From NCBI GenBank assembly GCA_002869615.1, contig PKUH01000001.1, positions 71,937-135,936 on the forward strand: 64,000 nucleotides of DNA, in the 5' to 3' direction. Positions 1,459-44,258 of the stretch are shown one piece after another. The notes under the pieces were generated by a model. That model made no database searches. It saw nothing but the letters and a program-made list of their open reading frames with translations, and was not told where the DNA came from. The first letter of the stretch is position 1, and each line of letters starts with the position of its first letter. A program made the position numbers and the translations under genes. This DNA is from Desulfuromonas sp. (lineage in GTDB: Bacteria > Desulfobacterota > Desulfuromonadia > Desulfuromonadales > UBA2294).

Positions 1459-1620
1459 CATTTAAATAATGACAGAATTTGAATCTTATAATACCCTCAA
1501 TCACTTGCGAATCGTCGATTCTGTGCGATAGTTGCAAACAGGTTCAGAAAAAACCTTTTATCTAATTAAATCAAGCCCTTTATCCACAAAGAATCATCAT
1601 TGCGAACCGGAGAGTTAATT

Positions 1621-4600
1621 GTGCCAACCGGAATACTCATAAGTTTTTTTCAGAATCGCTCCGATGCACGCAAGTGCCTTTGGGCTCTCAATAAAAAGGG
1701 CTTTCGTCGAGCCGCTGTTCTGCATCGCTCGAGCGGCGGCAACATCGACATCCTTGACTGCTTCAAGTGGACCCGGATCATCGGGCTTCTGGCCCTCACC
1801 TTAGGTTCCGGACTGGTAGCGCTTTTTACCGATATCGGCAAACTTGATCTGCGCTTATTCGGTGAAGACTTGCCACTTCATACACTGATTGTCAGCGGTT
1901 CAATAATCGGAATCACCCTTGGACTTGCCTGGCTTAAACGGTCACGTTTCGGTATTGCGACCCGTATTATCGATCAATACGTTCATTCCCTGATGCCGGA
2001 TGAGGCTGCATTGATCTTACAGGCACCGGTCGATGCGATGAAATCACCGATGGCAATAATTCGCGATAAGAGCGAGACCCTTCCGACAATTTTCATCCTT
2101 CATCCAGGTCGCGAACACCGGGGGGCCTCGCGCGATCTCGCCGGCCCTCTCAGCGATGACGAGGTCAGCCGCCGAGCCCGCTTCCAGGGGATTGAACACC
2201 AACTACAAAACAAGGATTCCGGTAAATCAGAACTGCTGCATCGGCTGAAAAAAGAAGGTCAATGGTTTCAGGAAATCTGTACCGATCTTACGGAGGCCTG
2301 CCGCCTCGAACAGGGTGCTTCACCGGTTGCTGAATGGATCATCGATAACGAATTCCTGGTTGCCAAGGCTGTTCGAGATATTCTCGTCAACCTGCCTAAA
2401 AGCTACTACCGTGAACTGCCGGTCCTGACCAGTCACAAACACTGGACCGGCTTTCCCTGCGTTTATGAGCTGGCCAAGGAAATGGTTTTCGACAATGAAT
2501 CGCGGCTCAATCGTGAAAACATTATTTCCTTCATCAGTTCCTACCAGACACTCAAAAAACTTTCGATTGCCGAACTCTGGGCGGTTCCACAAATGCTCAG
2601 AATCGCCCTGATCGAGAGCATTCTCGATCTGGCAATCCGGGTTCACAATGACATGCGCGAGCGCCAGCTCGCAGCCTTCTGGGCAAACCGTTTCATTGCC
2701 GCCAACCGGCGCGATTCATCGCAAATATTTTCGATCCTGGCAGAGCTTGATGATCGCCATCCGGAACCAAGCCTTTATTTCGGTTCACAGCTGATCAGCC
2801 TGCTCTATGATCAGGCAGCCACCCTGGCACCAGTAGAAAGCTGGCTCGAGCGTAAACTTGGAAAATCTGCCAATGATATCAACTTCAGCGAACAGAACCG
2901 CCAGGCCCATGACCAACTGCTGATCGAGGCCGCATTCACCAGTATCCGCCAACTCGTCCAGATCGACTGGCGCGACATCTTCGAAGAATTGAGCTGGGTC
3001 GAAAAAATCATGACCACCGATCCGGCTGGTATTTATCCAGCGATGGACTTTCAGACCCGCGACAAATACCGGCAGGTCATCAAACACTATGCACAACGCA
3101 GCGGCCGAACCGAAGATGATGTCGCGCGTACGGCCATAGAGCTCGCCCGCTCAACAGAAAGTCACGTCGGAACCCTGCTATTCGGTCCGGGCAAAGCTCG
3201 CCTCGATGCGAAACTGGACTGTCGGGAGAACCGGAGCAAACGATTCCGGGCTTTCCTGAGGGCCAACCACTGCGCAGTTTATCTGGGCGGCCTTGGAGCT
3301 ATCTTCCTGGGCATCTATCTTTTCATGTTCAATATTGCATTGACCAATGAATCGATAGCAGCCCGGTTCGGGTTCGCTATCTTATTGACGATTCCGGTCA
3401 GTCAATTGGCTCTCGAAATCCTCAATTACTTCCTGACGCGATTGGTCAGGCCCCGACCGCTCTCGAAAATGGATTTTGAAAAAACAGGGATTCCGGATGA
3501 ATTCCGGACACTTGTCGTTGTGCCGACCCTTTTGACAAGTGACGGAGCCATCAGAGAAGAAATTGAAAAACTCGAAATCCGCTTCATGGCCAACCGCGAC
3601 ACGAATCTTCGCTTCGGGCTTTTTACCGACTACACAGATTCGACCCTTGAACATAATGAAGAAGATGAAGCACTACTGCAACTCGCACAAAAGAGTATCA
3701 ATGGATTGAACAGGCGCTACGACACTGACACTTTTTTCCTGTTTCACCGCGAACGCACCTGGAGTAATACGGAGCAAAAATTTATCGGCTGGGAGAGAAA
3801 GCGGGGCAAGCTGGAAGAGTTGAATCAGCTGCTCGACGGCAGCAGCCCGGACAGTGCAAACAAGCTCGTCTATGCCGGGAACCCGGAACAACTTGACGGC
3901 ATCCGTTTTATTATCACCCTGGACAGTGACACCCAGTTGCCGCACGGCACCGCCCGGCGGATGATCGAAACCCTGGCCCATCCACTCAATCAGCCGCAGA
4001 TTGATGAGTCTGGACAGATCAAACGTGGGACCTACACGATTCTTCAGCCCCGTGTCACCCCGTCGCTGCAAAGCACGAGCAAATCTCCATTCAGCCAGAT
4101 TTACGCCGATGCCGTCGGCGTCGACCCTTATACACGGGTGGTCTCGGATGTCTACCAGGACCTGAGTGGTGAAGGTTCATACCACGGCAAGGGGATCTAT
4201 GATGTCAGAGCCTTCAGCCGGATTCTCTCGAATAATTTCCCCGATGAACTGGTCCTGAGTCACGATCTGATTGAAGGCGCACACGTCCGGACGGCACTGG
4301 TCAGTGATATCGAACTGTTCGACGACTTCCCCCAGGATTACCTTGGTTTTATTACCAGGCTTCGACGCTGGATTCGCGGAGACTGGCAAATATTCCCCTG
4401 GATCTTTCCCTGGGTCCCGAAAAAAGGTGGCGGTTTCAGAAAGAACCCGATTTCGATCTTCAACCGCTGGAAAGTTCTGGACAACCTCAGGCGCAGCCTC
4501 CTGCCAACCTTCAACCTTGCCCTGCTGATTGCCGCATGGTTGACATCACAGCAGGCAGCCATGGCCGTTATGATGATGATCGGCCTGCAAATCTTCTTCA

Positions 4601-7600
4601 ACCCCGTATCCCAGATCCTGTCTGCCGTGACAACCCGGAAAGGCATCAGAGGCTTCTCGGTTTCCCTGCACCTCAACCATCTGCAGCGGGCTCTCGCAGA
4701 AATAGCTATGCTGCCCCATCAGGCGTGGGTAACATTTGCCGCGATTTTACAAGCCTGGTACCGCCTTTTCATCTCTCATCGCAAACTCCTCGAATGGACA
4801 ACCGCGTACGCTGCCCAGACAACGGTTCAACGCCGCCGCCGCCTTTTCGCTGCTTCCCTGCTCCTCGCCTCAGCTTCTGCCGTGGCAATCAGTCTGCTCC
4901 TGTCTGAGCAGCAACCGGACAACCTTGTACAGGCCAGCCCATGGCTGCTCCTCTGGTTTTTCTCGCCTTTTTTCGGGTGGCTCCTGACAGCCCGGCCAAT
5001 CGAAAAAAACCAACGCGAGCTTTTACCGGCGAAAGAAATTCTGTTTCTGCGCCGAATCAATCGCCTGACCTGGCGTTTTTTCGCCGACTTTGTTAACGCC
5101 GAGACCTCATGGCTGCCGCCTGACAATTACCAGGTGTCGCATCAGGATCAGCTGGCTCTGCGGACCAGCCCGACCAATATCGGTTTTGCCATGCTCAGCA
5201 CCGTCGCGGCTTGCGACAGCGGATATATCACTCAGGTCGGGACCCTCGATAAACTCGAATCGACCATGCAGTCAATCGAAAAGCTGGAACGCTTCGAAGG
5301 CCATCTGTTGAACTGGTATGACATCGGCAACCTCACGCCGCTGGAACCCCGTTATGTATCGACTGTCGACAGCGGCAACTTCCTCGGTGCGCTCTGGACC
5401 CTGCAACAGGGGCTCAAAGATCAATTCACCGGTGAAATTATCAGTCGTTCAACTTTTGACGGTCTGCATGATACCGGCCGCATTTTGCTGAGGCGGATTC
5501 GTGACGATAATACTCTCAAGCCGATTCGCAGAGACTTGACCGCACTGCTTGAACAACTCGATCGGCCACCACGCAAGACTGTCGACCAGCTGAAACTACT
5601 ACGTCAGTCGGCCGATGCCGGCAAGAATATCACCAATTCAATACTCGAAATCTATCCTGAGCCGTGTGAGGTCAGTTACTGGTGCAAAGCGCTGGTCACT
5701 GAATTCGCAAACTGGTCAGAGATGGCCGATCAGTATCTTTCGTGGATTGAGCTGCTTGGCCAGCAGCAGAGCAAGCTCGCCGAAACCGCGATCAGGAATC
5801 TTTCCGAGATCAACGAAGACCTGAGCCAGGCGCCATCGATAAGAAATCTCGCCCGGGGGGAATCGGCTTCGGGCGCTCTGCTGAACATTATCCGTGAAAA
5901 TGCCCACACCGAATCTCCGTCCCTTGCCAAATGGGCGGGAGAAGTCCTTGATCGTTTTGCTGTCGCCCAACGTCACGCCAGCGCATTCAGACAACGGCAT
6001 GAAGATCTTCTGTCCAGCATCCGTAACCTGGCGGGCGGCATGAACCTCAAGTTTCTCTATCATCCGGAGAGGAAGCTGTTTTCAATCGGCTACAATGTTT
6101 CATCAGGCGAGATGGACAAATCCTATTACGATTTGCTGGCGAGTGAAGCCCGCTTCGGTGGTTTTGTTGCGATCGCCCGCGGCGACATCCCGATGGAACA
6201 CTGGTTCACCATGGGGCGTCCGCACACTCTGGTCGGTCGACACCGCGTTCTGCTCAGTTGGACCGGAACCATGTTTGAGTACCTGATGCCACAAATATTT
6301 CTCCGCTCCTATCGCTACTCCCTGCTCGACAAGGCGATACACAATGCGGTTGACACCCAGATCGAATATGGCAGAAAGAACGGTATCCCCTGGGGCATAT
6401 CCGAATCCGCATTCGGCGACCTAGATTTCAATAAAACTTACCAGTACAAGGCTTTCGGCGTTCCAAAGCTCGGTTTGAAGCGGGTTCTCGAGGACCAACT
6501 CGTTGTTTCACCCTATTCAACCCTGATGGCCGTCGGAATCATGCCGAAGGAAACGGTTCAGAATCTAAGAGACCTTGACCAACTCGGTATGCTCGATAAA
6601 TACGGCTACTTTGAAGCGATAGATTTCCGCCGCAAACCGGAACGGGATGGCCAGAGGGGTGTCAAAATCCAGGCTTATATGGCTCATCACCAGGGGATGG
6701 GATTTCTTGCCCTGACAAACTTCCTGCACAACAATCTCTTCCAGCGCCGCTTTCATGCCGATCCGAGGGCCCGGGCTTTCGAACCGTTGCTGCAGGAGAG
6801 GATTCCGACCTTGCCTCCACTTCAGCTGACGGCAACTCGTGAGCGGACCACTTCTCTGGTCGAAAGCAGTTCGGACATCCCGGCATCCGGAACCTTTGAA
6901 ACTCCGCACACATCAATGCCGAAAACCCAGATCCTCTGCAACGGCCACTACGACCTGATGATTACCCATACCGGTGGCGGATACAGCAAATGGAAAGGAC
7001 AGGAGATCAGCCGCTGGCGCGCTGATCGAACAAACGACTGCTGGGGAGTCTACTGCTATCTTAATGATCTGGCAGAACGAAAAACCTGGTCTGCAACCTA
7101 TCACCCGATTGGCGGAGAGCCAGACTATTACAATGCAGAACTCGCCCTCGACCGGGCAATCTTCCGCCGACTCGAAAATGACGTCCAGCTTGAAACAGAG
7201 GTTCTGGTTGCCCCGGAAGATGACGTCGAGATCCGGCGAATGACGCTGATCAATCGGTCATCCCACGCCAAGCGGCTCAACCTGACCAGTTACATTGAAC
7301 TTTCGATGACACCTCACGCCGCTGACCGGGCGCATCCGGCTTTCAATAAACTTTTCATCCAGACGGAGGCCGTCGAGGAGAAAAGAACCCTTCTTGCCTA
7401 TCGGCGCTACCGGAGCGAAGAGGCTGAGCCGTTCTTTGTCGCGCACCGTTTCGTCAATGACCAGGAACAGAAGCACTGGCGTTTCGAGACCGATCGCAGC
7501 CAATTCATCGGCCGGGGGCAGAATCTGGCAACGGCCCGTGGAGCCAGCAGCAGCCTCGGCAATAATGACGGCTTCGTCCTTGATCCGGTTCTTTGTCTGC

Positions 7601-10600
7601 GCGAAACCGTATCGCTCGAACCGAGCGAACGGGTTTCTGTTGCAATGATCATTGCCGCCGGTGATTCACGACAAAAGGTCCTTGATCTCGCTGAAAAATA
7701 CAACACCATGCAGGCCGTAAACCGGGCGATGGATTTTGCCTGGCGTTCAGCCCAGATTGAGCTTCGCCAGCTCCACATCCTGCCGGACGAGGCCAGACGC
7801 TTTCAACAACTGGCCGATCATCTCATCTTCCCGAACAATCTGTTGCGCGCACCGGCTGAAACACTTGAAGAGAACCGAAAAGGCCAATCCGGACTCTGGC
7901 CCTACGCAATCTCTGGAGATCTGCCAATTCTGCTTGTCTCAATCGACGAAACCCGTGACATCGGCCTGGTTCGCCAACTTCTTCAGGCTCATACCTATTG
8001 GCGTCGCCACGGCTTTCTCGCTGACCTCGTCATCCTTAACGAGGAATCGGAAAGTTATGAGCAACCCTTGCGCGAGCGGCTGGTCCATCTGATTCAGGCC
8101 CACTCAATGTTTGCCGGCCGCGATCAACCAAGCGGCATATACCTGCGCAGCGCTGAACAAATGCCGGATGAGGACCTCAGACTGCTCAAAGCTGCGGCGT
8201 CGGTCTTTCTGGTTGCAGCCCGCGGGTCGCTCTCACAACAGCTGGGGGTGCCACGGCCAACTCCCGTACTGCCACCATTGTTTAAAAAGTCAGGCAACTT
8301 TGACAGCCCGTCACCACCTTTGCCGGACATTGAGCTTCTGCACCACAATGGTTATGGCGGCTTCACTCCCGACGGAAAAGAATATGTGATCGAGCTGAAG
8401 CCGGGTGTCAGTACACCGGCGCCATGGGTTAACGTCATGGCCAATCCCGACTTTGGCGCCCTGGTCAGCGAAACAGGAGCCGGCTTCTCCTGGTATGGCA
8501 ACAGCCAGCGCAACCGGATCAACAGCTGGTCAAACGACCCGGTCATCGACCCTCCGTCGGAAGCAATCTATCTCCGTGATGAAGTAACGGGGGACTTCTG
8601 GACTGCAACCTCGGCACCGATTCGCAATGACTCGCCATATCGCTGTCGACACGGCGCCGGCTATACGATATTTGAACACAATCATGCCGGCACTGAATCC
8701 GAACTGACGATGTTCGTTCCGGTTGACAGCAACAACAGCCCGGTCAGAATTCAGCGATTGAGGCTTAAAAACAAAGCCCGTCGTAAACGAACCATCAGTG
8801 TTACCTGGTATACGGAACTGACGCTCGGCGAGCATCGTGAAGTTTCCCAGATGCATGCGATGACTCATTGGGACAGCGAATCACGGATTCTGCTCGCCCG
8901 CAACTGCTATCACCCCGAATACGGCAATCGCGTAACCTTCTTCGCGATGACGCCAAAACCGGACTCATGGGCGGGTGACCGGACTGCCTTTATCGGCCGC
9001 AATCGTACAATGACAGCTCCACAGGCAATGTTGCTCGAAAATCTCAACAACCACGGCGGTGCCGGCTGCGACCCCTGTGCCGCCCTGCAAACAACGATTG
9101 AGCTTGCCCCGGACGAAACTGAAGAGGTCCTCTGTATCACCGGGCAGGCAGAGTCGGTCGAGCAGGCACGGCTTTTCTCGCGAACCTTCCGTGATCATAG
9201 TATTGTTGAATCGTCGTTGACTGCAACATGCGAATGGTGGGACCGGTTACTCGGCACAATCAGGGTCACAACCCCCGAACCTGCAGCCGACATCCTGATC
9301 AACCGTTGGCTCCTTTATCAATCACTCAGTTGTCGGATCTGGGGCAGGTCGGCTTTTTACCAGTCCGGGGGTGCGTTCGGTTATCGTGATCAGTTGCAGG
9401 ATGTAATGGCTTTTCTGTTCACCCGCCCCGAACTGGCAAGAGAGCAGATATTGCTTGCGGCCAGTCGCCAGTTCCGTGAAGGTGATGTTCAGCACTGGTG
9501 GCACCCGCCGACCGGTGCCGGTATCCGCTCGAGGATTTCCGATGATCTGCTCTGGCTTCCATTCGTCACCAGCCAATATGTCCGTTCAACGGGTGATGCT
9601 GACATTCTCAACATCGACGTTCCATATCTCAGCGCACCATTGCTGGAACCGGGTCAACACGAAGTTTTCAGTGCCCCTGAGATCACATTCGAACAGGGTA
9701 CTATCTTTGAACACTGCCAGCGGGCAGTCCGAAAAGGCCTGACATCCGGCCCGAACGGTCTCCCTCTGATCGGCACCGGCGACTGGAACGACGGGATGAA
9801 CCTGGTCGGAGCCGATGGCCGGGGCGAATCGGTCTGGCTGGGCTGGTTTCTCTTCGAAATACTGGCCGGCATGGCATATCTGGCAGACCGCCTTGGCAAA
9901 CCGGAACTCGAACAGGAATATCGTCAGAAACGGAATGATCTGGTTCAGCAGATCGAGAAAGTTGCCTGGGATGGGGCCTGGTATCAACGCGGCACGTTCG
10001 ATGACGGATCGCCACTCGGTTCGTCGCGGTGCGATGAAGCGAAGATAGATTCGCTCCCGCAATCATGGGCCTGGCTGACCGGAGCCGGCAACCGCGAACG
10101 GGCCGAACAGGCCATAGAATCGGCGTGGGAGCACCTGATCCTGGAGGATGAACGGCTGGTTCTGCTGTTCGAGCCGCCTTTTAATCATTCAGAACAAAAT
10201 CCCGGCTATATCAAAGGCTACCCGCCGGGAGTCAGGGAGAACGGTGGTCAGTACACCCATGCGGCACTCTGGTTTGCCATGGCTCTGGCGCGCAAAGGAG
10301 ATGGCAACCGCGCGGTCAAGCTTCTCAACATGATGAGCCCGATGGAACATACCCGGGACCGCGAGGCAGCTGCCCACTACGGGCTTGAGCCCTACGCGAT
10401 CGCCGCAGACATATACCGACTTCCCGGCCGCGTCGGTCGTGGCGGCTGGTCATGGTATACTGGTTCAGCCGCCTGGACGTACCGCGCCTGGGTTGAAGAG
10501 ATCTTCGGACTCAAACAGATTGAGAATACGCTCCACATCCACCCGGTGATTCCGCAGGAATGGGAGAGCTTCTGTGTTGAGTATCGACATGGTGACGCCC

Positions 10601-10755
10601 ACTATCGAATTGACGTTGAAAACCCCGAGCATGTCATGAGCGGCATCGCAAGTGTCGAACTTGATGGGAGGTATCTGGAGAACAAGGTTATCCCGTTAAC
10701 AAAGGAACCCGGCAACTACCATGTCCGCGTCCGGCTGGGAGGAGACAAACCCTGA
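1621..10755 (+). CDS. ndvB: giant cyclic beta-1,2-glucan synthase-like protein (NdvB/ChvB/Cgs family: membrane GT domain plus C-terminal GH94 glycosyl-phosphorylase-like domain)
   Basis: A single ORF runs 1600-10755. I prefer the GTG at 1621 because GGAGAG (1609-1614) lies 6 nt upstream. The glycosyltransferase region has DSDTQLP and RWIRGDWQ motifs and multiple TM segments. The C-terminal third (RIWGRSAFYQSGGAFGYRDQLQD...GDWNDGMN...ENGGQYTHAA) resembles cellobiose/chitobiose-phosphorylase (GH94) catalytic domains. Confidence 0.8.
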   Translation: MPTGILISFFQNRSDARKCLWALNKKGFRRAAVLHRSSGGNIDILDCFKWTRIIGLLALTLGSGLVALFTDIGKLDLRLFGEDLPLHTLIVSGSIIGITLGLAWLKRSRFGIATRIIDQYVHSLMPDEAALILQAPVDAMKSPMAIIRDKSETLPTIFILHPGREHRGASRDLAGPLSDDEVSRRARFQGIEHQLQNKDSGKSELLHRLKKEGQWFQEICTDLTEACRLEQGASPVAEWIIDNEFLVAKAVRDILVNLPKSYYRELPVLTSHKHWTGFPCVYELAKEMVFDNESRLNRENIISFISSYQTLKKLSIAELWAVPQMLRIALIESILDLAIRVHNDMRERQLAAFWANRFIAANRRDSSQIFSILAELDDRHPEPSLYFGSQLISLLYDQAATLAPVESWLERKLGKSANDINFSEQNRQAHDQLLIEAAFTSIRQLVQIDWRDIFEELSWVEKIMTTDPAGIYPAMDFQTRDKYRQVIKHYAQRSGRTEDDVARTAIELARSTESHVGTLLFGPGKARLDAKLDCRENRSKRFRAFLRANHCAVYLGGLGAIFLGIYLFMFNIALTNESIAARFGFAILLTIPVSQLALEILNYFLTRLVRPRPLSKMDFEKTGIPDEFRTLVVVPTLLTSDGAIREEIEKLEIRFMANRDTNLRFGLFTDYTDSTLEHNEEDEALLQLAQKSINGLNRRYDTDTFFLFHRERTWSNTEQKFIGWERKRGKLEELNQLLDGSSPDSANKLVYAGNPEQLDGIRFIITLDSDTQLPHGTARRMIETLAHPLNQPQIDESGQIKRGTYTILQPRVTPSLQSTSKSPFSQIYADAVGVDPYTRVVSDVYQDLSGEGSYHGKGIYDVRAFSRILSNNFPDELVLSHDLIEGAHVRTALVSDIELFDDFPQDYLGFITRLRRWIRGDWQIFPWIFPWVPKKGGGFRKNPISIFNRWKVLDNLRRSLLPTFNLALLIAAWLTSQQAAMAVMMMIGLQIFFNPVSQILSAVTTRKGIRGFSVSLHLNHLQRALAEIAMLPHQAWVTFAAILQAWYRLFISHRKLLEWTTAYAAQTTVQRRRRLFAASLLLASASAVAISLLLSEQQPDNLVQASPWLLLWFFSPFFGWLLTARPIEKNQRELLPAKEILFLRRINRLTWRFFADFVNAETSWLPPDNYQVSHQDQLALRTSPTNIGFAMLSTVAACDSGYITQVGTLDKLESTMQSIEKLERFEGHLLNWYDIGNLTPLEPRYVSTVDSGNFLGALWTLQQGLKDQFTGEIISRSTFDGLHDTGRILLRRIRDDNTLKPIRRDLTALLEQLDRPPRKTVDQLKLLRQSADAGKNITNSILEIYPEPCEVSYWCKALVTEFANWSEMADQYLSWIELLGQQQSKLAETAIRNLSEINEDLSQAPSIRNLARGESASGALLNIIRENAHTESPSLAKWAGEVLDRFAVAQRHASAFRQRHEDLLSSIRNLAGGMNLKFLYHPERKLFSIGYNVSSGEMDKSYYDLLASEARFGGFVAIARGDIPMEHWFTMGRPHTLVGRHRVLLSWTGTMFEYLMPQIFLRSYRYSLLDKAIHNAVDTQIEYGRKNGIPWGISESAFGDLDFNKTYQYKAFGVPKLGLKRVLEDQLVVSPYSTLMAVGIMPKETVQNLRDLDQLGMLDKYGYFEAIDFRRKPERDGQRGVKIQAYMAHHQGMGFLALTNFLHNNLFQRRFHADPRARAFEPLLQERIPTLPPLQLTATRERTTSLVESSSDIPASGTFETPHTSMPKTQILCNGHYDLMITHTGGGYSKWKGQEISRWRADRTNDCWGVYCYLNDLAERKTWSATYHPIGGEPDYYNAELALDRAIFRRLENDVQLETEVLVAPEDDVEIRRMTLINRSSHAKRLNLTSYIELSMTPHAADRAHPAFNKLFIQTEAVEEKRTLLAYRRYRSEEAEPFFVAHRFVNDQEQKHWRFETDRSQFIGRGQNLATARGASSSLGNNDGFVLDPVLCLRETVSLEPSERVSVAMIIAAGDSRQKVLDLAEKYNTMQAVNRAMDFAWRSAQIELRQLHILPDEARRFQQLADHLIFPNNLLRAPAETLEENRKGQSGLWPYAISGDLPILLVSIDETRDIGLVRQLLQAHTYWRRHGFLADLVILNEESESYEQPLRERLVHLIQAHSMFAGRDQPSGIYLRSAEQMPDEDLRLLKAAASVFLVAARGSLSQQLGVPRPTPVLPPLFKKSGNFDSPSPPLPDIELLHHNGYGGFTPDGKEYVIELKPGVSTPAPWVNVMANPDFGALVSETGAGFSWYGNSQRNRINSWSNDPVIDPPSEAIYLRDEVTGDFWTATSAPIRNDSPYRCRHGAGYTIFEHNHAGTESELTMFVPVDSNNSPVRIQRLRLKNKARRKRTISVTWYTELTLGEHREVSQMHAMTHWDSESRILLARNCYHPEYGNRVTFFAMTPKPDSWAGDRTAFIGRNRTMTAPQAMLLENLNNHGGAGCDPCAALQTTIELAPDETEEVLCITGQAESVEQARLFSRTFRDHSIVESSLTATCEWWDRLLGTIRVTTPEPAADILINRWLLYQSLSCRIWGRSAFYQSGGAFGYRDQLQDVMAFLFTRPELAREQILLAASRQFREGDVQHWWHPPTGAGIRSRISDDLLWLPFVTSQYVRSTGDADILNIDVPYLSAPLLEPGQHEVFSAPEITFEQGTIFEHCQRAVRKGLTSGPNGLPLIGTGDWNDGMNLVGADGRGESVWLGWFLFEILAGMAYLADRLGKPELEQEYRQKRNDLVQQIEKVAWDGAWYQRGTFDDGSPLGSSRCDEAKIDSLPQSWAWLTGAGNRERAEQAIESAWEHLILEDERLVLLFEPPFNHSEQNPGYIKGYPPGVRENGGQYTHAALWFAMALARKGDGNRAVKLLNMMSPMEHTRDREAAAHYGLEPYAIAADIYRLPGRVGRGGWSWYTGSAAWTYRAWVEEIFGLKQIENTLHIHPVIPQEWESFCVEYRHGDAHYRIDVENPEHVMSGIASVELDGRYLENKVIPLTKEPGNYHVRVRLGGDKP

Positions 10756-34859: not shown

Positions 34860-37028
34860 TCAGGTCGCTCCCGGCCGTTTCAGTAAAAAACAGTAGTGAA
34901 TTTTCGGGTTCCGCTGAAAATCCTCCGGAATGGTTTGCGCCGAGATGTCCCTGACTTCGAGCTGCGGAAAAGCATCGACATCGAACTTGAACCGCCGGAA
35001 GTTGGTCGAGAAAATGATCGTGCCGTTGTTCGCCAGCAGCTTGAGTGCCGCTTGCAGCAGTGCGCCATGATCGCGCTGGATCTCGAACGTATCATCCATC
35101 CGCTTGGAATTGGAAAAGGTCGGAGGATCGATGAAGACCAGGTCGTACTCCCCTTCGGCCTGGCCGAGCCACTCGGTACAGTCGGCCTGAATCGTCCGGT
35201 GGGCGTCGGCGCTGAAGCCGTTCAACTCAAGGTTGCGGCGGGCCCAGTCGAGATAGGTATTCGACATGTCGACGCTGGTCGTTTCGCTGGCACCGCCGAG
35301 GGCAGCATGAACCGAGGCGGCACCGGTATAGGCAAACAGGTTAAGGAACCGTTGCCCTTCGACCATTTCTCCGATCATCCTCCGGACCGGCCGATGATCG
35401 AGAAAAAGCCCGGTATCGAGGTAGTCGGTCAGGTTGACGAGCAGTCGGGCCCGCCCCTCGCCAACTTCGAGGAATTCACCCTCCTGTCCCTGACGACGGT
35501 ATTGCGAACTCCCCTTCTGACGTTGCCTGACCTTGACGATCACCCGTTCCCGCCTGACCGAGAGAACATCAGGCAGAACCTCGATGATATCATCAAGCCG
35601 TCGACGTGCCGCTTCTTCGTCGATTGAAGCGGGCGGCGCATATTCCTGCAGGTGGACCCAGTCGCCGTACAGATCAACGGCAACGGCATATTCCGGCATA
35701 TCGGCATCATAAAGGCGATAACAGCTGATGCCATTTTTACGGGCCCATTTGCCGAGCCGCTTCAGGTTCTTGCGCAAGCGGTTGGCAAACATCTCGGCAC
35801 CGGCGGTTGACGCCGACTCGGCGGAAGCAGAAGTCTCCTTGTCAGATGCAGGCAGAACCTTCGCACCATCAGCCGGAACCAGGTAATGGAGCAACTGGCA
35901 TTCAATGGCGCCGTTGTAAACCGTCTCACTCTTTTCCGGACGCAGACCGATGGCATAGGCGAGCTGCTGGTCGCTGGTCAATACGGCTGCCTGCCAGCCG
36001 CCAAAGTCGGACTGCAACCGCTCACCGAGACGGGTATAGAGTCCACGCAGCCTCTTGCGCTCTCCGAGACGCTCGCCATAGGGTGGATTCACCAGCAAAA
36101 GCCCCTGTTTCCCTTCAGGAAAATATTCCTCGCGTGTTTCGAGCGCCCGTTTTTCGATATGAACTATTTTTTCCAGACCTGCGGCGGCGACATTGGCCAG
36201 GGCATGCCGCACCACTTTGCCATCGGCATCGTAACCAACGATCCGGGGTAGCCGCTGACACCCGGCGTCACGACGTTGCTCCGCCTCGGCAACCAGCGTC
36301 GCCCAGAGATCCGGTTGGTGCTGTTTCCACCCGATAAAACCAAAGTAATTACGCAAAAGTCCGGGGGCGATATCGGCGGCGATCAGCGCCGCCTCGATCG
36401 GCAGGGTTCCGGAACCACACATCGGGTCGCAGAAGGCGCCACCCGCCGCCGCGATCTCCGGCCAGTCGGCCTGCAACAATAACGCCGCCGCCAGGTTCTC
36501 TTTGAGCGGCGCTTCGCCGGCGTCCTGGCGGTAACCCCGCCGGTGCAGGCTGTCGCCGGAAAGGTCGAGCGCCAGACTCCCTTCTTGCTTGCGCAGATGA
36601 AAATTGAAGCGGACATCCGGGTTGCGAACATCGACCGATGGCCGCTCGCCGGTCCGGTCACGGAAACGATCGACAATGGCGTCCTTGATTCGCAGGGCGG
36701 CGTAATGTGAGTGGTTGAGCGGTGCAGCGACCAGAGTGACATCGATCGCGAAGGTCTGGTCGACTGAGAAATGCTCTTCCCAGGGAAAATCGTTGCATAA
36801 ACGATAAAGATCTTCTTCGCCGGCGATCGTCATCGACTGCAGCTTCAGCAGCACCCGGCTTGCCAGCCGTGACCAGAGGCAGCTGCGATAGGCGGTCGCC
36901 AGATCACCCGTGTAAGAGACGCCAGCCCGGATTTTGCGAATTTTACCGGCGCCCGACGCTTTCAGTTCCTTGAGCAGCAGTGATTCGAGACCCTTCGGAA
37001 CCGTGGCAAAAAGATCGAATTTTGTCAT
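34860..37028 (-). CDS. rlmL: bifunctional 23S rRNA (m2G2445/m7G2069) methyltransferase RlmKL
   Basis: A 722-aa protein with an N-terminal THUMP region (MTKFDLFATVPKGLESLL...). It has two SAM-MTase modules (DPMCGSGT...NPPYGERL, then a second C-terminal MTase ending IDPPTFSNSK). Confidence 0.85.
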   Translation of the reverse strand: MTKFDLFATVPKGLESLLLKELKASGAGKIRKIRAGVSYTGDLATAYRSCLWSRLASRVLLKLQSMTIAGEEDLYRLCNDFPWEEHFSVDQTFAIDVTLVAAPLNHSHYAALRIKDAIVDRFRDRTGERPSVDVRNPDVRFNFHLRKQEGSLALDLSGDSLHRRGYRQDAGEAPLKENLAAALLLQADWPEIAAAGGAFCDPMCGSGTLPIEAALIAADIAPGLLRNYFGFIGWKQHQPDLWATLVAEAEQRRDAGCQRLPRIVGYDADGKVVRHALANVAAAGLEKIVHIEKRALETREEYFPEGKQGLLLVNPPYGERLGERKRLRGLYTRLGERLQSDFGGWQAAVLTSDQQLAYAIGLRPEKSETVYNGAIECQLLHYLVPADGAKVLPASDKETSASAESASTAGAEMFANRLRKNLKRLGKWARKNGISCYRLYDADMPEYAVAVDLYGDWVHLQEYAPPASIDEEAARRRLDDIIEVLPDVLSVRRERVIVKVRQRQKGSSQYRRQGQEGEFLEVGEGRARLLVNLTDYLDTGLFLDHRPVRRMIGEMVEGQRFLNLFAYTGAASVHAALGGASETTSVDMSNTYLDWARRNLELNGFSADAHRTIQADCTEWLGQAEGEYDLVFIDPPTFSNSKRMDDTFEIQRDHGALLQAALKLLANNGTIIFSTNFRRFKFDVDAFPQLEVRDISAQTIPEDFQRNPKIHYCFLLKRPGAT

Positions 37029-37897
37029 CCGGCCTGCCCTGCCCTTTTTGCTACCGCCCGGCCAATCTCTTCGACACAGCTGTACGGGATCTTCAGGTTG
37101 CCACGACCACTACCGATCCGGATATCCCCTTTTGATTCACCATGAAAATCGGAACCACCGGTAATAATCAGATCGCGCCGCCGCGCTTCGGTAATCGCCC
37201 ATTCAATATCGTCGTTCGATCCGCCCGAATTATACGCTTCGACACCGTCGAGCCCGAGTTCGACAAAGGCATCGAGGAGATCCGATATCACCCGGCGCTC
37301 CGGCGAAATAAACGGTGGATGAGCAAGAACGGCAATACCACCGGCCCGATGCAGAAGGTTGATCGCTTCGTTGACCGGAAAATACCGTTTTTCAACATTG
37401 CAGTGAACAAGGTAACGCCGGAAGGCATCATCGGAATCGGCAACATGCCCTTGTTCGACCAGCTCCATGGCAATGTGCGGCCGGCCGATTGCGCCGGCGG
37501 CTCGGGCCTGGACCGCATCGAGCAATAGCTGAGTTTTACCCTCCGCTGCGAGCTTTTCATTGACCCGTTCAACAATCATGATGTTCCGGTTTTTACGAAA
37601 ATCGCGAAATCCCTGCAGAGCCGAGTTCAGACCGGAATGATGATGATCAAAGCCATAACCGAGCAGATGGATATCCTGGTAGCTTTCCCAGGCGACCGAC
37701 AGTTCAACACCGACCAGGACCTCAACGTCGTATTCAAGGCCGGCCTGTAACGCTTCGTCGGTGCCATCAACCATATCGTGGTCGCAGATCGAGGCCGCTC
37801 TCAGGCCGGCTTCGGCAACCCGGCGAATCACTTCGGACGGAGGATAGGACCCGTCTGAACAGTGGCTGTGCAGATGCAAATCAACAAATGATTTCAT
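37025..37897 (-). CDS. PHP-domain phosphoesterase (TrpH/YciV-like)
   Basis: MKSFVDLHLHSHCSDGS is the canonical PHP start. The internal Met at 37897 is preferred over the ORF-track start at 37966. The stop overlaps the rlmL start by 4 nt. Confidence 0.8.
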   Translation of the reverse strand: MKSFVDLHLHSHCSDGSYPPSEVIRRVAEAGLRAASICDHDMVDGTDEALQAGLEYDVEVLVGVELSVAWESYQDIHLLGYGFDHHHSGLNSALQGFRDFRKNRNIMIVERVNEKLAAEGKTQLLLDAVQARAAGAIGRPHIAMELVEQGHVADSDDAFRRYLVHCNVEKRYFPVNEAINLLHRAGGIAVLAHPPFISPERRVISDLLDAFVELGLDGVEAYNSGGSNDDIEWAITEARRRDLIITGGSDFHGESKGDIRIGSGRGNLKIPYSCVEEIGRAVAKRAGQAG

Positions 37898-38032
37898 AGA
37901 ACAAAAACTCCGAAATTTTAGTGACATATCACCGTATCTTAACATGCGAAGCGACGGCTTGACCATGATACACTTTTACGTGTAGATTGAATCGCATTAA
38001 AAGTGTCAGGGATCCCGTGGAGACGATATTGA

Positions 38033-38995
38033 ATGCCCCCGTTACTTGAAGTTCGTGATCTTAAAACCAGCTTCTTCACCGAAAAAGGGATTATCCGTGC
38101 GGTTGACGGCATCTCGTTCACCCTGCACCGTGGCAAGACCCTGGCCATGGTTGGAGAGTCGGGCTGCGGCAAGTCAATGACGGCGCTCTCTCTGCTCCGC
38201 CTGATTCCCGAGCCGGGGAGAATCACCGGTGGCGAAATACTTCTGGACGGCGAAAACCTGCTTGCCCTGTCGGAAGACGAGATGCGGTCGATGCGCGGCC
38301 AACATCTCGCCATGGTTTTCCAGGAACCGATGACGGCGCTGAATCCGGTGCTCAAAATCGGTGACCAGATCGCCGAAGTTTTGCAGCTGCATGAACGGCT
38401 GTCGTATCAAAAGGCACTCCGCAAGGCAGTTTCCCTGCTCGAGCAGGTCGGCGTACCCGACCCGCAGCAGCGACTGGACAACTATCCGCACCAGCTCTCC
38501 GGCGGTTTGCGCCAACGCGTCATCATCGCAATGGCGCTGGCTTGCGATCCGCAAATCCTGATTGCCGACGAGCCGACTACGGCGCTCGATGTTACTATCC
38601 AGGCCCAGATTATGGAGTTGCTGCGTCAACTTCAGGATCGCCACCAAATGGCGATCCTGCTAATCACCCACGATCTCGGAATCGTCGCCGAATCAGCGGA
38701 TGACGTTGTTATCATGTACGCCGGTCTGATTGTCGAGCAGACCGACGTTAAATCACTATTCAAAAATCCGTCCCACCCCTATACCCGTGGATTGCTCGCC
38801 TCTCTCCCCCGAACTGACGATAAGCGGGGGAGACTGACCCCGATCAAGGGTCAGGTGCCGCCGGCCCTCGACCGACCGACCGGCTGTCCCTTTCGCAATC
38901 GTTGTCCGGAAGCTATTGCAAAGTGCGCAGCGGCCTGCCCCGAGCTCAAGCCGATCGAGACCGGTCATGCCGTACGCTGCTGGAGGCGAGAATGA
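38033..38995 (+). CDS. oligopeptide/dipeptide-type ABC transporter ATP-binding protein (DppD/OppD-like)
   Basis: Motifs present are Walker [17 protein letters not shown], Walker [13 protein letters not shown] and the C-terminal oligo_HPY extension (HPYTRGLL...CPFRNRC). Confidence 0.85.
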
Positions 38996-39981
38996 AGCCG
39001 CTGCTTGAAATCCACAATCTTTCAAAATCGTTCCAGCTGACAACAAATACCCCCGGTGCCCGCAAACAGTTACTGCGGGCAGTCGACAATATCTCGTTTG
39101 CTCTCTTTCCCGGGGAAACTTTCGGACTGGTCGGTGAATCGGGTTGCGGCAAATCGACGACCGGTAAACTGATTCTCAGGCTGCTTGATGCCGATTCGGG
39201 CGAAATTATTTTCAACGGACAGAACCTGCGCAAGATCCCACCTGACCGACTGCGCAATCTGCGCCGCAATATGCAGATGATATTCCAGGATCCTTTTTCC
39301 TCGCTGAATCCACGCATGCGGATCGGCCAGATCATTGCCGAGCCGCTCAAAATTCATGGTCTCACCGGAAACGGAGATCTTAAGGAGTCGGTCTCCAGGC
39401 TGCTCGAGACGGTTGGACTCGACCAATCACTAATCGATCGCTTTCCGCATGAGTTTTCCGGAGGGCAGCGTCAGCGTATCGGTATCGCCCGGGCCCTGGC
39501 GGTCAAACCGCAACTGATCGTCGCCGATGAACCGGTCTCCGCCCTCGACGTTTCAATCCAGGCCCAGGTTATCAATCTGATGCGGGACGTGCAAAAGGAA
39601 TTCGGACTGACCTATCTTTTCATTGCCCACGATCTCGCCGTTATCAGACATATTTGCGACCGGGTTGCGGTCATGTATCTTGGCCGTATTGTTGAACTCG
39701 GGCCGGCCGCGGCACTTTACACTTCGCCACGGCATCCCTATACCGAAGCGTTACTCGCTTCAGTACCGGTTCCCGACCCCGAAGCAAAGAAAACATTCAG
39801 CGCCTTGCCGGGAGAGGTTCCCTCACCGGTCAACCCGCCGAACGGCTGTCACTTTCATCCCCGCTGCCGTTATGCACGCGATATCTGCAAAATAAAAGCA
39901 CCCGAATTGCTGAACATTGAAGAGGATCGGGAGGTCGCCTGCCACTTCAGCGACCAGGTCGGCCGAATCAAATCCGAATGA
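38992..39981 (+). CDS. oligopeptide/dipeptide-type ABC transporter ATP-binding protein (DppF/OppF-like)
   Basis: The ATG at 38992 ([14 protein letters not shown]) overlaps the upstream stop (ATGA). Motifs present are [29 protein letters not shown] and HPYTEALL...CHFHPRC. Confidence 0.85.
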   Translation: MKPLLEIHNLSKSFQLTTNTPGARKQLLRAVDNISFALFPGETFGLVGESGCGKSTTGKLILRLLDADSGEIIFNGQNLRKIPPDRLRNLRRNMQMIFQDPFSSLNPRMRIGQIIAEPLKIHGLTGNGDLKESVSRLLETVGLDQSLIDRFPHEFSGGQRQRIGIARALAVKPQLIVADEPVSALDVSIQAQVINLMRDVQKEFGLTYLFIAHDLAVIRHICDRVAVMYLGRIVELGPAAALYTSPRHPYTEALLASVPVPDPEAKKTFSALPGEVPSPVNPPNGCHFHPRCRYARDICKIKAPELLNIEEDREVACHFSDQVGRIKSE

Positions 39982-40220
39982 CTGATGATTCAACCAAAGT
40001 GGCGATTTTCCACCACTCAATGCAAATTGCCCTACTCATTTTCGCCAGAGATTGTGTCACCTGACCAGCAATTTCCGACATTTTTGCTAAAAAACGCCTT
40101 TTCACCAAAAACCAGCCAGTCTGAAAACAATTCACATGGTCAGACCAATTAGAGGTAAACCATTGTTCTCCCAACCTTTTCTATAATATTTACAACAAAT
40201 CGATTCATAATTACCAGATT

Positions 40221-40235
40221 TGGCACAGGCATTGC
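40221..40235 (+). promoter_or_regulatory. sigma54 (RpoN) -24/-12 promoter
   Basis: TGGCAC (40221-40226), 5 nt (aggca), then TTGC (40232-35) is an exact match to TGGCAC-N5-TTGC. The predicted start is near 40247. Confidence 0.7.
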
Positions 40236-40246
40236 TTCTAATGAAA

Positions 40247-40339
40247 GGTATGTTCGGGGATTTTACGCATCCTGATCAATCGGAAAGCATCCCCTTTTAC
40301 GCCGCCACGGGTACTCTCTCCCCCGGGCGGCGTTTTTTT
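40247..40339 (+). ncRNA. candidate sigma54-dependent small RNA or terminator-controlled leader upstream of ptsP
   Basis: It runs from the predicted TSS to an intrinsic terminator. Hairpin 1 pairs GGGGAT (40256-61) with ATCCCC (40289-94), with inner GC and UCC/GGA pairs. A U-rich linker follows, then the terminator hairpin. There is no SD or credible ORF downstream of the TSS. Confidence 0.45.
40300..40339 (+). terminator. rho-independent terminator
   Basis: CGCCGCC(A)CGGG pairs with CCCGGGCGGCG to give an 11-bp GC-rich stem with one bulge. The loop is 10 nt, followed by TTTTTTT (40333-40339). Confidence 0.75.
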
Positions 40340-40438
40340 ATTCGACTCACAATGCCTATTTCGACTATTATGCTAACTTAATGTCATGATATATTTTTAA
40401 AGTTCAATTCTATCTGTTTTTTTCCTCGGGGGAATCCA

Positions 40439-42793
40439 ATGGTTGCCAAACAATCAAATAAAGGATTCGGTGTCGCGACACTGGAGGATATCTCCGCTCT
40501 GATTCTGCAATCGCACGACCTCGACGAAACCCTGCGCAATATTGCCAACCTCGTCGCCAAACGGATGCGGACCGATGTCTGCTCGATCTATCTGCTCGAC
40601 ACGGATGACGAAACGCTGCGACTCCGGGCGACCAAAGGCCTCTCCAAGCGCGCTATCGGCAAAGTCACGATGAAAATCGGCGAAGGCCTTACCGGGATGG
40701 CCGCCCAGGAGCGCCGATCGATTGCTATCCAGGACCCTGAGAATCATCCCAAGTACCGCTACTTTAAAGAAACCGGAGAAGAAAAGTTCCATTCTTTTCT
40801 CGGCATACCGCTGTTCGACCGCAAAGCTCCACTTGGCGTTATCGTACTCCAGACCAAGGTGACACGCCAGTTCAGTGATGAAGAAATCAGCACCCTGACC
40901 ACGATCGCTTTTCAGGTGACATCGATTGTTATCAATGCGCGGCTTCTCGACCGCATCCAGCAAAAGGAACACGAAGCGACCCGGGTCACCCGCGAGCTTG
41001 CACAGGCCAAAAGAAGTCTCACTGAAGATAAAGATGATCAAGATGAAGATGTTCCGTTCAGTACCGTAATTCGCGGCAATGTCGCATACCCCGGTGTCGC
41101 GATGGGCCAGGCCAACATCCTGGAAGAACGTCTCGGTTTTTCCGATATTCTTGATGAAGAAGCTGTTGATGAGACAGAAGAGCTTGAACGTCTCGATGAC
41201 GCCCTCGAAAAAACACGTATCCAGACCATTTTCCTCGAAAAACGGGTAGCGGAAAGGCTCTCCGAAAGTGACGCCTCGATTTTCCACACCCACCAGATGA
41301 TTCTCGAGGACCGCTCCTTCATCAAAAAATTACAGGATCAAATCAAGAATGGTCATGGCGCACCTTATGCTCTCGAAAAGGTTGTCAGTGATTATATTGC
41401 AGCCTTTGAAAAAATGGAGGATTCATATCTTCGTGAACGGGCCGCTGACATGGAAGACATCGGTCGCCGCCTGCTGGCTAACCTGATCGGTGAAGAGAAC
41501 CACATGCTTCACCTCAAACATTCCGGCATCCTGGTCGCTCGGCAAATCCTTCCATCTGATATGGCCGCTCTTGATCATGAACAGATTACCGGGATTGTCA
41601 CCGAAGCGGGAGAGAAAAACTCGCATGCGGTGATCATGGCCAAATCGCTCGGCATACCGGCACTGGTCGGAGTTAAAAAAATTCTGAGCCGCATCGCTCC
41701 CGATGATGATTTGATTCTTGATGCCAATTCCGGAACCCTCTATGTAAATCCGAATGAGGCAATTGTTGAAGAATATACCCGTCTTGAAGAAGATCAGAAC
41801 CGTGAGCGGAGCCGACTCGATGCATTCCGCGACAAGCCGGCGGTCACGGCCGACGGAGAAAAAATTACCTTGCGCGCAAACATCGGACTGGTCAGCGATG
41901 TTCCGGTTGCTCTTCGCAACGGCGCCGAGGGCGTCGGTCTTTACCGGACTGAATTCCCCTATATGACCCGGGCCGATTTCCCGGATCGGCAGGATCAGTA
42001 CATGCTTTATCGAAAAGTCATCGAAGGTTTTAACGACAAACCGGTCACCATCCGGACTCTCGATATCGGTGGCGACAAAGCGCTCCCCTACTTCTCGCCA
42101 CCGGATGAAGACAACCCGTTCATGGGATGGCGCTCGGTCCGCGTTTCTCTTGACAACAGGGATATTTTCCAGACCCAGATCGAAGCAATCCTGATGGCCG
42201 GCATGCACGGTCCGGTCAAATTGCTCTTTCCGATGATTTCAAGCATGGATGAATTGATGGCCTGCAAGGAGGTTGTAGCCGAAGCGAGGGAAAACCTGCT
42301 GGCGGAAGGAGTCCTTTTTACCGATGAAGTCCCGCTTGGAATCATGATCTAGGTGCCGGCGGCTGTCCGTCTGGTCAAGCGCTTTGCCAATGAAGTCGAC
42401 TTCTTTGCCCTCGGCACCAATGACCTGATTCAGTACCTGCTTGCCGCCGATCGCAACAATCCCCTGGTCAGCAAATATTACGATCCGCTCCATCCTGCAG
42501 TCCTGCAGGTTTTGAATGAAGTCAAAACGACCGCTGCCAATCTCGGCAAGGGCGTTTGCGTTTGCGGTGAGCTGTCATCAGATCCGATCAACCTGATTCC
42601 ACTTATCGGCATGGGTATCCGTGAGTTCTCGATGCCGGCACCATTCATCCCCCGCACCAAGGCCTTTCTTGAAAAATTACCGGCGGATGTGGCCCGCAGG
42701 GCGGCCTGGGAGATCCTTGACATGGGAACCAGCAAAGAGATCCGGGAACATCTGGAGTCCGTACTCGAAGAGCTGAACAGCGAACCGGCCTGA
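40439..42793 (+). pseudogene. ptsP: phosphoenolpyruvate-protein phosphotransferase PtsP (EI-Ntr: GAF plus PEP-utilising domains) interrupted by an in-frame TAG at 42350-42352
   Basis: ORFs 40439-42352 and 42353-42793 are in the same frame, separated only by TAG. Together they read ...[37 protein letters not shown]... The N-terminus has a GAF domain. The phospho-His region is GEKNSHAVIMAKSLGIPA. The catalytic-Cys region VCGELSSD lies downstream of the stop. Confidence 0.8.
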
Positions 42794-43523: not shown

Positions 43524-44258
43524 CTATTCCGATTCATTCCTTACGACCAGAACATATCCATAGTCCTGACCGTCTTCCGTCTTCAGGGGCGATGCTGTCA
43601 GACTGAGGTATTGTCTTTCACCGGCTGGCGATACACCTTCCAGTCGATAAATCTCTCCCTCGAAGCGGGCCTTGATCATATCACTGAACTTGACCAGAGT
43701 GGAGTAGGCACCATCCGAGTCAAGACTATCGAGACGCTTGCCGACGATCGACTCATCACAACCAAAAATCTCCTTGGCCGCTTCATTCAACTCAGCGACC
43801 TGGAGCTCCTTGTCTGTAATAAAAATACCTTCACGGGCACACCGGAACAAGGCTTCCAGACGCATACGGAAGGTTTCGTTCTCTTCTATCAGTTGTTTAT
43901 GATCAAGCGCCATCCGGGTAACCCGCAGCAGGTTCTCCTGCATAACAGGTTTCGGAATGTAATCGAAAGCACCGTAACGAACAGCTTCGGCAGCCGTTTC
44001 GACCTCCGGCGCACCGGTAATCATGACAACCGGCGAAGTAATGCCGCGTTCCTTGATTTCGCGCAAGATTTCAAGACCGCTGTCACGACCGAGAAGAATA
44101 TCAAGAAAAACGAGATCAAACTCCTCATCGGCCAAAAGTTTTTTGCCGTCCTGAAGATTACTTGCTGTCTTAACGGCATAACCCTCGTCCTTGAGAAAAC
44201 TTTCAAAAGTAAAACGGATATTTTCTTCATCATCTACAATCAGAATCCTCGATGCCAT
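43524..44258 (-). CDS. response regulator: receiver domain plus C-terminal PAS domain
   Basis: The REC motifs are ILIVDDEE, DLVFLDILL and YIPKPV. The C-terminal half is PAS-like (REGIFITDKELQVAELNEAAKEIFG...). Confidence 0.8.
   Translation of the reverse strand: MASRILIVDDEENIRFTFESFLKDEGYAVKTASNLQDGKKLLADEEFDLVFLDILLGRDSGLEILREIKERGITSPVVMITGAPEVETAAEAVRYGAFDYIPKPVMQENLLRVTRMALDHKQLIEENETFRMRLEALFRCAREGIFITDKELQVAELNEAAKEIFGCDESIVGKRLDSLDSDGAYSTLVKFSDMIKARFEGEIYRLEGVSPAGERQYLSLTASPLKTEDGQDYGYVLVVRNESE

Follow-up and report, generated by a model that had tools for sequence, protein, structure and literature searches.

RESULTS

A sigma-54 promoter and a predicted two-hairpin RNA precede ptsP

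We analysed a 64,000-nt stretch of the genome of Desulfuromonas sp. (Desulfuromonadales; assembly GCA_002869615.1, contig PKUH01000001.1, positions 71,937 to 135,936 of the forward strand), referred to below as the window, in which a sigma-54 promoter and a predicted small RNA (sRNA) lie between the genes dppF and ptsP (Table 1). In a preliminary description of this DNA, a promoter with exact -24/-12 consensus had been proposed to drive an RNA of two hairpins, the second being a strong terminator, with the unit located about 100 nt ahead of ptsP. Promoter, RNA, and distance to ptsP were all recovered at the positions originally given for them. The RNA region (40247-40340) folds with a minimum free energy (MFE) of -35.5 kcal/mol (z = -3.2), and an equally good fold arose in 1 of 200 shuffled sequences. 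In the folded RNA, a 9-nt single-stranded tail is followed by hairpin 1, a UUUU linker, the terminator hairpin, and the U7 tail. The terminator went undetected by a generic scanner, because this scanner accepts loops of 3-8 nt and the loop here comprises 10 nt; its GC-rich, covarying stem and the U-tract behind it identify it as an intrinsic terminator.

Table 1. Features of the window in and around the dppF-ptsP interval
Feature	Position	Strand	Basis or remark
rlmL	34860-37028		upstream of dppD
PHP gene	37025-37966		upstream of dppD
dppD, dppF (two dpp/opp-type ABC ATPases)	38033-38995, 38902-39981		upstream flank of the RNA
dppF-to-RNA spacer	39982-40220	.	relatives carry a 2.3-kb hydrogenase-like sigma-54 activator gene here
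Imperfect palindrome AGTGGCGATTTTCCACCACT	39998-40017	+	just after the dppF stop; core TGGC..N..GCCA in five clade members
Decayed palindrome remnant TGTGTCACCTGACCAGCA	40053-40070	+	7/12 positions; 168 nt upstream of the -24 box
Clade-specific element TGGTCAGACCAATTA...TAAACCATTG (also TGGTCAGACCAWTTA...TAAACCATTG)	40137-40165	+	~84 nt upstream of the -24 box
Sigma-54 promoter TGGCAC-N5-TTGC	40221-40235	+	TGGCAC 40221-40226, TTGC 40232-40235
Predicted small RNA, ~93 nt	40247-40339	+	start inferred from promoter geometry
Hairpin 1, closing GGGGAU/AUCCCC	40256-40294	+	MFE fold
Terminator hairpin, GC-rich, 12 pairs	40299-40333	+	MFE fold and family covariation
Terminator loop, 10 nt, UACUCUCUCC	40312-40321	+	probable functional site
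U7 tail of the intrinsic terminator	40333-40339	+	read from sequence
ptsP sigma-70-type promoter, TCGACT-18-TATTAT	40342-40371	+	promoter scan
ptsP (GAF domain and three enzyme I domains)	40439-42793	+	Pfam; domains split over two abutting in-frame open reading frames

The exact motif TGGCAC-N5-TTGC has its sole match in the window at this site. Since 0.14 matches are expected by chance and 13 of 100 shuffled sequences contained at least one, the -24/-12 motif taken by itself is no more than suggestive.

The promoter-RNA unit is conserved in Desulfuromonadales

Eighty genome loci around relatives of PtsP, all from Desulfuromonadales, were retrieved, and a search with a simple pattern and then with a covariance model detected the promoter and the two-hairpin RNA upstream of ptsP in 58 of them. 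The covariance model scored the RNA of the window at 77.9 bits (E = 8.5e-18; 40244-40339) as its single match there, and neither the 64 kb nor any of the loci contained a second copy, so that there is one RNA per locus. Metagenome contigs scanned with a pattern for the RNA alone, CTCTCTCC-N7-GGYGYTTTTTT, yielded 109 stretches, 65 of which were true members by the covariance model. The RNA was also present in two cultured strains, Desulfuromonas versatilis (AP024355.1) and Desulfuromonas sp. AOP6. At the expected distance from the RNA, GG-N10-GC was found in 58 of 59 genome loci and in 62 of 62 metagenome loci; the spacing of GG and GC in TGGCAC-N5-TTGC is thus the one kept in the orthologues. 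Conservation of promoter and RNA together in more than 120 independent loci places the feature far above chance.

The preliminary description had not recognised the RNA as a member of a known family, and this was upheld by a covariance-model search against Rfam 15. For window positions 39900-40600, the best matches stayed below the gathering thresholds (AS1726, 21.3 against 50; Hrs1, 19.9 against 56.4; ar14, 16.8 against 58.8 bits), four canonical loci gave nothing at gathering threshold, and the top match of locus L054 was LhrC, with 21.7 against a threshold of 110. As no score came near any threshold, membership in a known family was rejected. No published description of the RNA, or of the hydrogenase-like sigma-54 activator presented below, was found in a literature search whose incomplete coverage leaves such absence unproven. 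We conclude that the RNA represents a new, uncatalogued family across Desulfuromonadales, of a known kind, namely, a sigma-54-dependent sRNA encoded beside its activator.

A constant loop on a covarying terminator stem

All 104 unique family sequences share a common fold. In the terminator stem, 95.3% of the cells are paired and 8 of 11 pairs show compensatory changes. None of 500 shuffles matched the observed pairing, and shifting the partners by 1-3 columns abolished the signal. Every family member carries a T7 to T10 tail. The terminator loop, (A)CCUCUCUCC, also written CUCUCUCC, is almost invariant across the family. Because the loop sequence is constant while the enclosing stem covaries, the loop is the likely functional site of the RNA. 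A constant loop on a drifting stem is the signature of a site that is read by its sequence, be it a seed for pairing or a site bound by a protein.

The helix of hairpin 1, closed by a G-run and a C-run, was present in the MFE fold of 104 of the 104 unique members. Since the MAFFT alignment was out of register in this hairpin, covariation was analysed after anchoring on the GGG/CCC core, which revealed one clearly covarying pair (A-U versus G-C), paired in 89 of 104 sequences compared with a shuffle mean of 70. The apical loop of hairpin 1 is clade-specific and C-rich in most clades (CCGCCC, CCCCCC, and UUCC). Conservation of the boxes and covariation of both stems in relatives had been named in the preliminary description as a check of its proposal. 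The boxes and both hairpins are indeed kept and the terminator stem covaries, whereas hairpin 1 does so at one pair only.

These substitution patterns also bear on whether the region might encode a small protein and not a non-coding RNA, as could be proposed from a 53-codon TTG/ATG frame at 40220-40381. We regard this as extremely improbable, since the frame begins upstream of the predicted transcription start, lacks a ribosome-binding site, and runs across the terminator. Not even the closest relatives keep its start codon and reading frame, UAG is present in the 5' region of many family members, and the substitutions are of the RNA type, with compensatory changes in the stem. The ATG at 40241, which also lies upstream of the predicted transcription start, is not conserved in the four closest relatives, in agreement with the initial assessment that the transcript contains no credible open reading frame.

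The metagenome contig L090 (~4838-4930) contains an RNA-like element whose terminator and loop (GGACUCUCUCCCC) closely resemble those of the family. It has a different 5' hairpin and no recognisable sigma-54 promoter, and could be either distantly related to the family or a product of convergence.

In relatives, a hydrogenase-like sigma-54 activator is encoded next to the RNA

A six-frame motif search in the related loci identified a sigma-54 activator gene on the same strand as the RNA, ending ~220 nt upstream of the -24 box. It directly precedes the RNA in about 93% of loci (55 of 58 genome loci, and 48 of the 52 metagenome loci whose upstream sequence was long enough). Its product, a protein of 756-765 amino acids that bears generic names only in public sources, has the features of an enhancer-binding protein: a Sigma54_activat domain (PF00158, 5.9e-69), GAFTGA at residue 513 within the AAA+ domain, and a Fis-type helix-turn-helix (HTH) (HTH_8, 5.4e-09).

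The sensory part of the activator contains two CxxCxxCxxxCP ferredoxin ([4Fe-4S]) motifs, an [FeFe]-hydrogenase H-domain (Pfam Fe_hyd_lg_C, 5.5e-45), and a small iron-sulfur domain, C378-x2-C-x4-C-x16-C403 (Cx2Cx4Cx16C). The top relatives in PDB are [FeFe]-hydrogenases (7p5h, 8e-22). The H-cluster motifs read THCP, SSCIAGKFE, and FCNGGCIGGPG, and the four cluster-binding cysteines are retained (L004, L054), with the proton-relay Cys299 replaced by His and Met353 by Ser. By these motifs, the module belongs with the putative sensory [FeFe]-hydrogenases of group C/D. The N-terminal 420 residues have a layout like that of TmHydS and TamHydS (groups C and D), with the four cluster cysteines retained. 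Unlike these proteins, which have a PAS domain or no output domain, the activator possesses a fused sigma-54 AAA+ domain and HTH as its output. The M2e/M2f "putative sensory" hydrogenases were described as having two N-terminal clusters and a C-terminal Cx2Cx4Cx16C and as having lost Cys299, Met353, and Met497, and their physiological role and signalling route are unknown according to the same source (PMC8163306). From the group C/D, HydS-type architecture of the sensor, the likely signal is H2 or the cellular redox state.

In L048, L049, and L052 (~660-2920), a diverged hydrogenase-like activator (~40% identical) is encoded directly upstream of ptsP, with a gap of ~90 nt and with neither the RNA nor the sigma-54 promoter. 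The neighbourhood of activator and ptsP therefore also exists without the RNA.

Palindromic sites link the activator and RNA promoters

Two or three copies of the palindrome TGTGCCA-N4-TGGCACA precede the RNA promoter at constant distances, -170 and -105 from the -24 box in one group of loci and -200, -169, and -92 in another. An extra single palindrome was found in 37 loci ~2,550 nt upstream of the RNA promoter, before the activator gene, where it reads CGTGCCA-N4-TGGCACA (L003-L079; L190:5924-5941; L191:5918-5935). In the two isolates examined, this palindrome lies within the activator's sigma-70 promoter, flanked by a -35 box of sequence TTGACA/TTGACT and by the -10 region. A site inside the activator's own promoter is the usual layout for autoregulation and suggests that the activator controls its own gene. 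When sites were scored by matches to the 12 positions of TGTGCC-N6-GGCACA, no other site with 11 or 12 of 12 matches was found in 417 kb of loci, except for an atypical site overlapping the L006 promoter. Because the palindromes are confined to the RNA and activator promoters, we consider protein, sites, and RNA to form one circuit.

The RNA is separable from ptsP

Two readings of the RNA had been offered at the outset, a free-standing RpoN-dependent sRNA and a terminator/antiterminator leader of ptsP. Conserved promoter, hairpins, and terminator, the covarying stem, the occurrence once per locus, and the lack of an Rfam match support the former. The latter, in which the RNA would be a cis-acting leader, with the sigma-54 promoter driving ptsP and the terminator serving as a conditional attenuator, gained no support, given a separate ptsP promoter, the lack of an antiterminator, and other downstream genes in some loci.

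What speaks for a leader is position: the RNA precedes ptsP by ~100 nt in the same orientation, this adjacency is widespread, and the diverged activator directly upstream of ptsP in L048, L049, and L052 implies that the activator-ptsP neighbourhood is old. Adjacency of RNA and ptsP was observed in all 58 RNA-bearing ptsP loci save L001 and L074, and the RNA is followed by ptsP in 41 of 52 metagenome loci. This linkage is weaker than that to the upstream activator gene (~79% versus 92-95% of loci). In L001, the closest relative of the window, 1.45 kb separate the RNA from ptsP, comprising an inserted gene that encodes a fusion of a nitroreductase and a 4Fe-4S ferredoxin domain (L001:1966-2856) and ~400 nt of non-coding DNA. 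In the clade of L125, L153, L110, L115, L085, and L123, yebC-ruvCAB follow the RNA instead of ptsP and the activator is kept. RNA and loop are thus conserved where yebC-ruvCAB or another gene takes the place of ptsP.

The anatomy of the intergenic region likewise argues against a leader. A conserved sigma-70-type promoter between terminator and ptsP, found in most related loci directly after the U-tract (TCGCCA/TCGCAA, 17 nt, TATCAT/TAAAAT or similar), indicates that ptsP has a promoter of its own. The terminator, with an 11-12-bp GC-rich stem and U7-U10, is not opposed by any alternative pairing; freed of its 3' arm, the 5' arm gains on average only ~-2.8 kcal/mol by pairing elsewhere, from which we conclude that there is no antiterminator. 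With no competing pairing and a separate downstream promoter, the region does not behave as a leader of the attenuator or riboswitch type. Nor is the loop more complementary to the ptsP 5' region than shuffled sequences are (longest match, mean 4.7 nt versus 4.8 nt for the shuffles). Taken together, a leader function is decidedly improbable, and the link between RNA and ptsP is one of conserved gene order. The idea that the loop DNA is a protein site for the ptsP promoter was also rejected, as the loop is equally conserved in loci without ptsP downstream.

The ptsP gene of the window contains an in-frame TAG at 42350-42352, in the phosphoenolpyruvate-binding domain, where the window has GIMI*VPAAV and relatives have GxMIEVPAAV. 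All examined relatives encode Glu (GAA or GAG) at this position, and in the window the frame continues to 42793. The TAG is either a recent nonsense mutation, making ptsP a pseudogene, or a sequencing error.

The activator gene was lost in the window and its clade

Gene order at the RNA locus of Desulfuromonas sp. AOP6 is rlmL and the PHP gene (on the opposite strand, followed by a Tex-family gene), dppD, dppF, activator, RNA, and ptsP, and D. versatilis has dppD, dppF, activator, RNA, and ptsP in the same order. The order in the window, rlmL, PHP, dppD, dppF, RNA, ptsP, is that of AOP6 minus the 2.3-kb activator gene. A six-frame search of the window for GAFTGA, ESELFG, and Walker A found no sigma-54 activator, and tblastn with the activator against the 64 kb returned nothing better than E = 5.7, so that a hidden activator gene was rejected. 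The earlier statement that no enhancer-binding protein is encoded in the window was thereby confirmed. Its corollary, that the activator is unknown, applies to the window; relatives identify the ancestral regulator as the hydrogenase-like enhancer-binding protein, which has been deleted here.

The binding sites have also disappeared. No full activator site (at least 11 of 12 positions) is present in the window, and one 10/12 match at 47361, far from the RNA, was taken as chance. The remnant at 40053-40070 stands exactly where relatives have a full site (-168 to -172), and its left half is kept in the clade to which the window belongs. This activator-less clade consists of the window, L001, L121, L096, and L149, which share the promoter, the RNA, the ptsP promoter, and the elements at 40137-40165 and 39998-40017 in a spacer that has otherwise diverged. 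The element at 40137-40165 is kept in all five members while its flanking DNA diverged. It starts with an 11-bp perfect palindrome, TGGTCAGACCA (40137-40147), conserved within the clade, and might bind a replacement regulator or serve to bend the DNA. A further locus, L076, has dppD-dppF (L076:635-2585) followed directly by the RNA (2784-2880), without activator gene and without palindromes. Its near relatives L073 and L078 retain the activator, and the loss in L076 possibly occurred independently of that in the window clade.

Such retention is relevant to the question of whether the RNA gene of this genome is a relic whose promoter is never opened and whose RNA is not made. In support of decay, the window encodes no activator and contains no full binding site, and the in-frame stop in the neighbouring ptsP hints at local decay or a sequencing error. 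Against this, five diverged activator-less members (measured PtsP identities, 79-82%) have kept the whole RNA and a promoter close to consensus, L076 likewise retains the RNA without the activator, and preservation of a new shared upstream element while the spacer diverged is a pattern of purifying selection. Moreover, with 64 kb of the genome visible, an activator may be encoded elsewhere. We therefore regard a relic as rather unlikely. Promoter, RNA, and shared elements kept while the spacer diverged argue for continued selection on the RNA, which is therefore probably still expressed in this organism, by means of a relocated or a different activator.

DISCUSSION

We propose that positions 40221-40339 constitute a stand-alone gene, including sigma-54 promoter and terminator, for a non-coding RNA of ~93 nt and that its ancestral activator gene was deleted in this genome, and put the probability of this interpretation at roughly two in three. 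It is carried by the conservation of promoter and RNA, the covariation of the terminator stem, the linkage to the activator gene, the positions of the palindromes, and the separate promoter of ptsP. From these we infer the transcription start, activation by the hydrogenase-like protein, the nature of the signal, and base-pairing with target mRNAs.

In the mechanism that we envisage, sigma-54 RNA polymerase would start at ~40247, and a constitutive intrinsic terminator would stop transcription at U7. In the ancestral arrangement, the one-component activator encoded upstream would bind the two or three palindromes ~90-200 nt before the -24 box and switch the RNA on, and would control its own gene via the palindrome inside its sigma-70 promoter. 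The RNA would then act in trans, with the loop ACCUCUCUCC pairing with G/A-rich sequences that resemble ribosome-binding sites and thereby altering translation or mRNA stability. The complement of the loop, GGAGAGAGG(U), would be of this G/A-rich type, and the C-rich loop of hairpin 1 perhaps joins the terminator loop in pairing. The U-rich linker, hairpin, and U-tail fit an RNA of the Hfq type, and a stand-alone unit, a conserved unpaired seed, and a terminator with U-tail, as expected of an sRNA, are all present. In the genome studied here, activator deletion and decay of its sites would have left promoter and RNA intact. Because the local activator gene was deleted, expression must rely on an activator copy elsewhere or on a different activator.

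Several observations weigh against this interpretation. The transcription start and the very existence of the RNA are predictions, as are H-cluster binding and H2 response of the putative sensor. Hairpin 1 shows little covariation, and the loop in the window has UAC where the consensus has ACC. With both the activator gene and full sites absent from the window, the RNA may be unexpressed here or under different control. Searches for targets gave no positive result: a pattern scan of the window for the loop complement produced 4 matches with 4.9 expected, a duplex-energy scan of 47 crudely defined gene starts ranked the real loop no better than shuffled loops, and a scan of all loci for the loop complement (2.7 Mb, both strands) recovered mostly the antisense strand of the RNA itself. 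As these scans covered a tiny fraction of any genome, their failure says little.

The same loop could serve a different purpose. Instead of pairing with mRNAs, the stand-alone RNA might bind a protein via its C/U-rich loop and act as a sponge or cofactor. A loop sequence that is fixed while the stem covaries fits a protein site as well as a seed, the target scans yielded no mRNA, and CrcZ, a sigma-54-dependent sponge RNA, offers a precedent. The motif is present in a single copy per RNA, though, whereas known sponges have repeats, and pairing RNAs classically carry a C/U-rich loop that is complementary to ribosome-binding sites; the null target scans are uninformative, given the tiny genome fraction covered. 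On balance, protein binding appears to us a minor possibility, and we favour an RNA that acts by base-pairing. LhrC, RsaE/RoxS, and RepG pair with ribosome-binding sites via C/U-rich loops. C/U-rich unpaired motifs like the one described here are found in LhrC of Listeria, RsaE/RoxS of Firmicutes, RepG of Helicobacter (in the terminator loop), and the alphaproteobacterial ar14/AbcR (anti-Shine-Dalgarno). This common C/U-rich-loop design probably explains the sub-threshold scores for ar14 (16.8 bits) and LhrC (21.7 bits). The scores are far below the thresholds of 58.8 and 110, respectively, and the new RNA differs from these examples in phylum, promoter type, and regulator, with its pairing inferred.

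The arrangement of a sigma-54-dependent sRNA next to the gene of its activator is known from Qrr/LuxO in Vibrio, GlmY/GlrR in enterobacteria, and Pxr/PxrR in Myxococcus. With these systems, the locus described here shares a short terminated RNA, a -24/-12 promoter, and upstream activator sites. It differs from Qrr, GlmY, and Pxr in that the RNA has no sequence or structure match in Rfam, and from response-regulator activators in that the regulator is of the one-component type, its sensor being a hydrogenase-like iron-sulfur module. In D. vulgaris, non-coding RNAs were reported downstream of DVU0653 and DVU0679, and several sigma-54 activators have an adjacent non-coding RNA target (PMC4641369). 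This layout, common in the former Deltaproteobacteria (PMC4641369), is a precedent for the one found here.

It is tempting to speculate that a HydS-type [FeFe]-hydrogenase fused directly to a sigma-54 activator serves as a one-component H2/redox sensor and that this sensor acts mainly, or even exclusively, through the RNA. On present sequence evidence we hold this to be possible rather than probable. If it were true, H2 or electron-carrier status would be converted into post-transcriptional control of a regulon via an anti-Shine-Dalgarno-mimicking loop in metal- and sulfur-reducing Desulfuromonadales, and the "sensory" [FeFe]-hydrogenases would obtain their first defined signalling output together with a simple reporter, the RNA promoter. 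A fusion of sensor and sigma-54 activator with mapped sites and one sRNA target would make the role of sensory hydrogenases testable by means of a reporter fusion, and two lineages that lost the activator gene yet kept the RNA provide a natural experiment. sRNAs are almost unexplored in Desulfuromonadales, an environmentally important group that respires metals, sulfur, and electrodes; the family contributes an RNA that is widespread and easy to recognise and for which promoter, candidate regulator, and candidate functional site are clear.

Two further features of the window were recorded. A 244-amino-acid protein with REC and PAS domains is encoded on the reverse strand at 43524-44258, 0.7 kb downstream of ptsP, and is not a sigma-54 activator, because it has no AAA+ domain. 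At 1600-10755 on the forward strand, a single open reading frame of 3,051 amino acids is the largest in the window.

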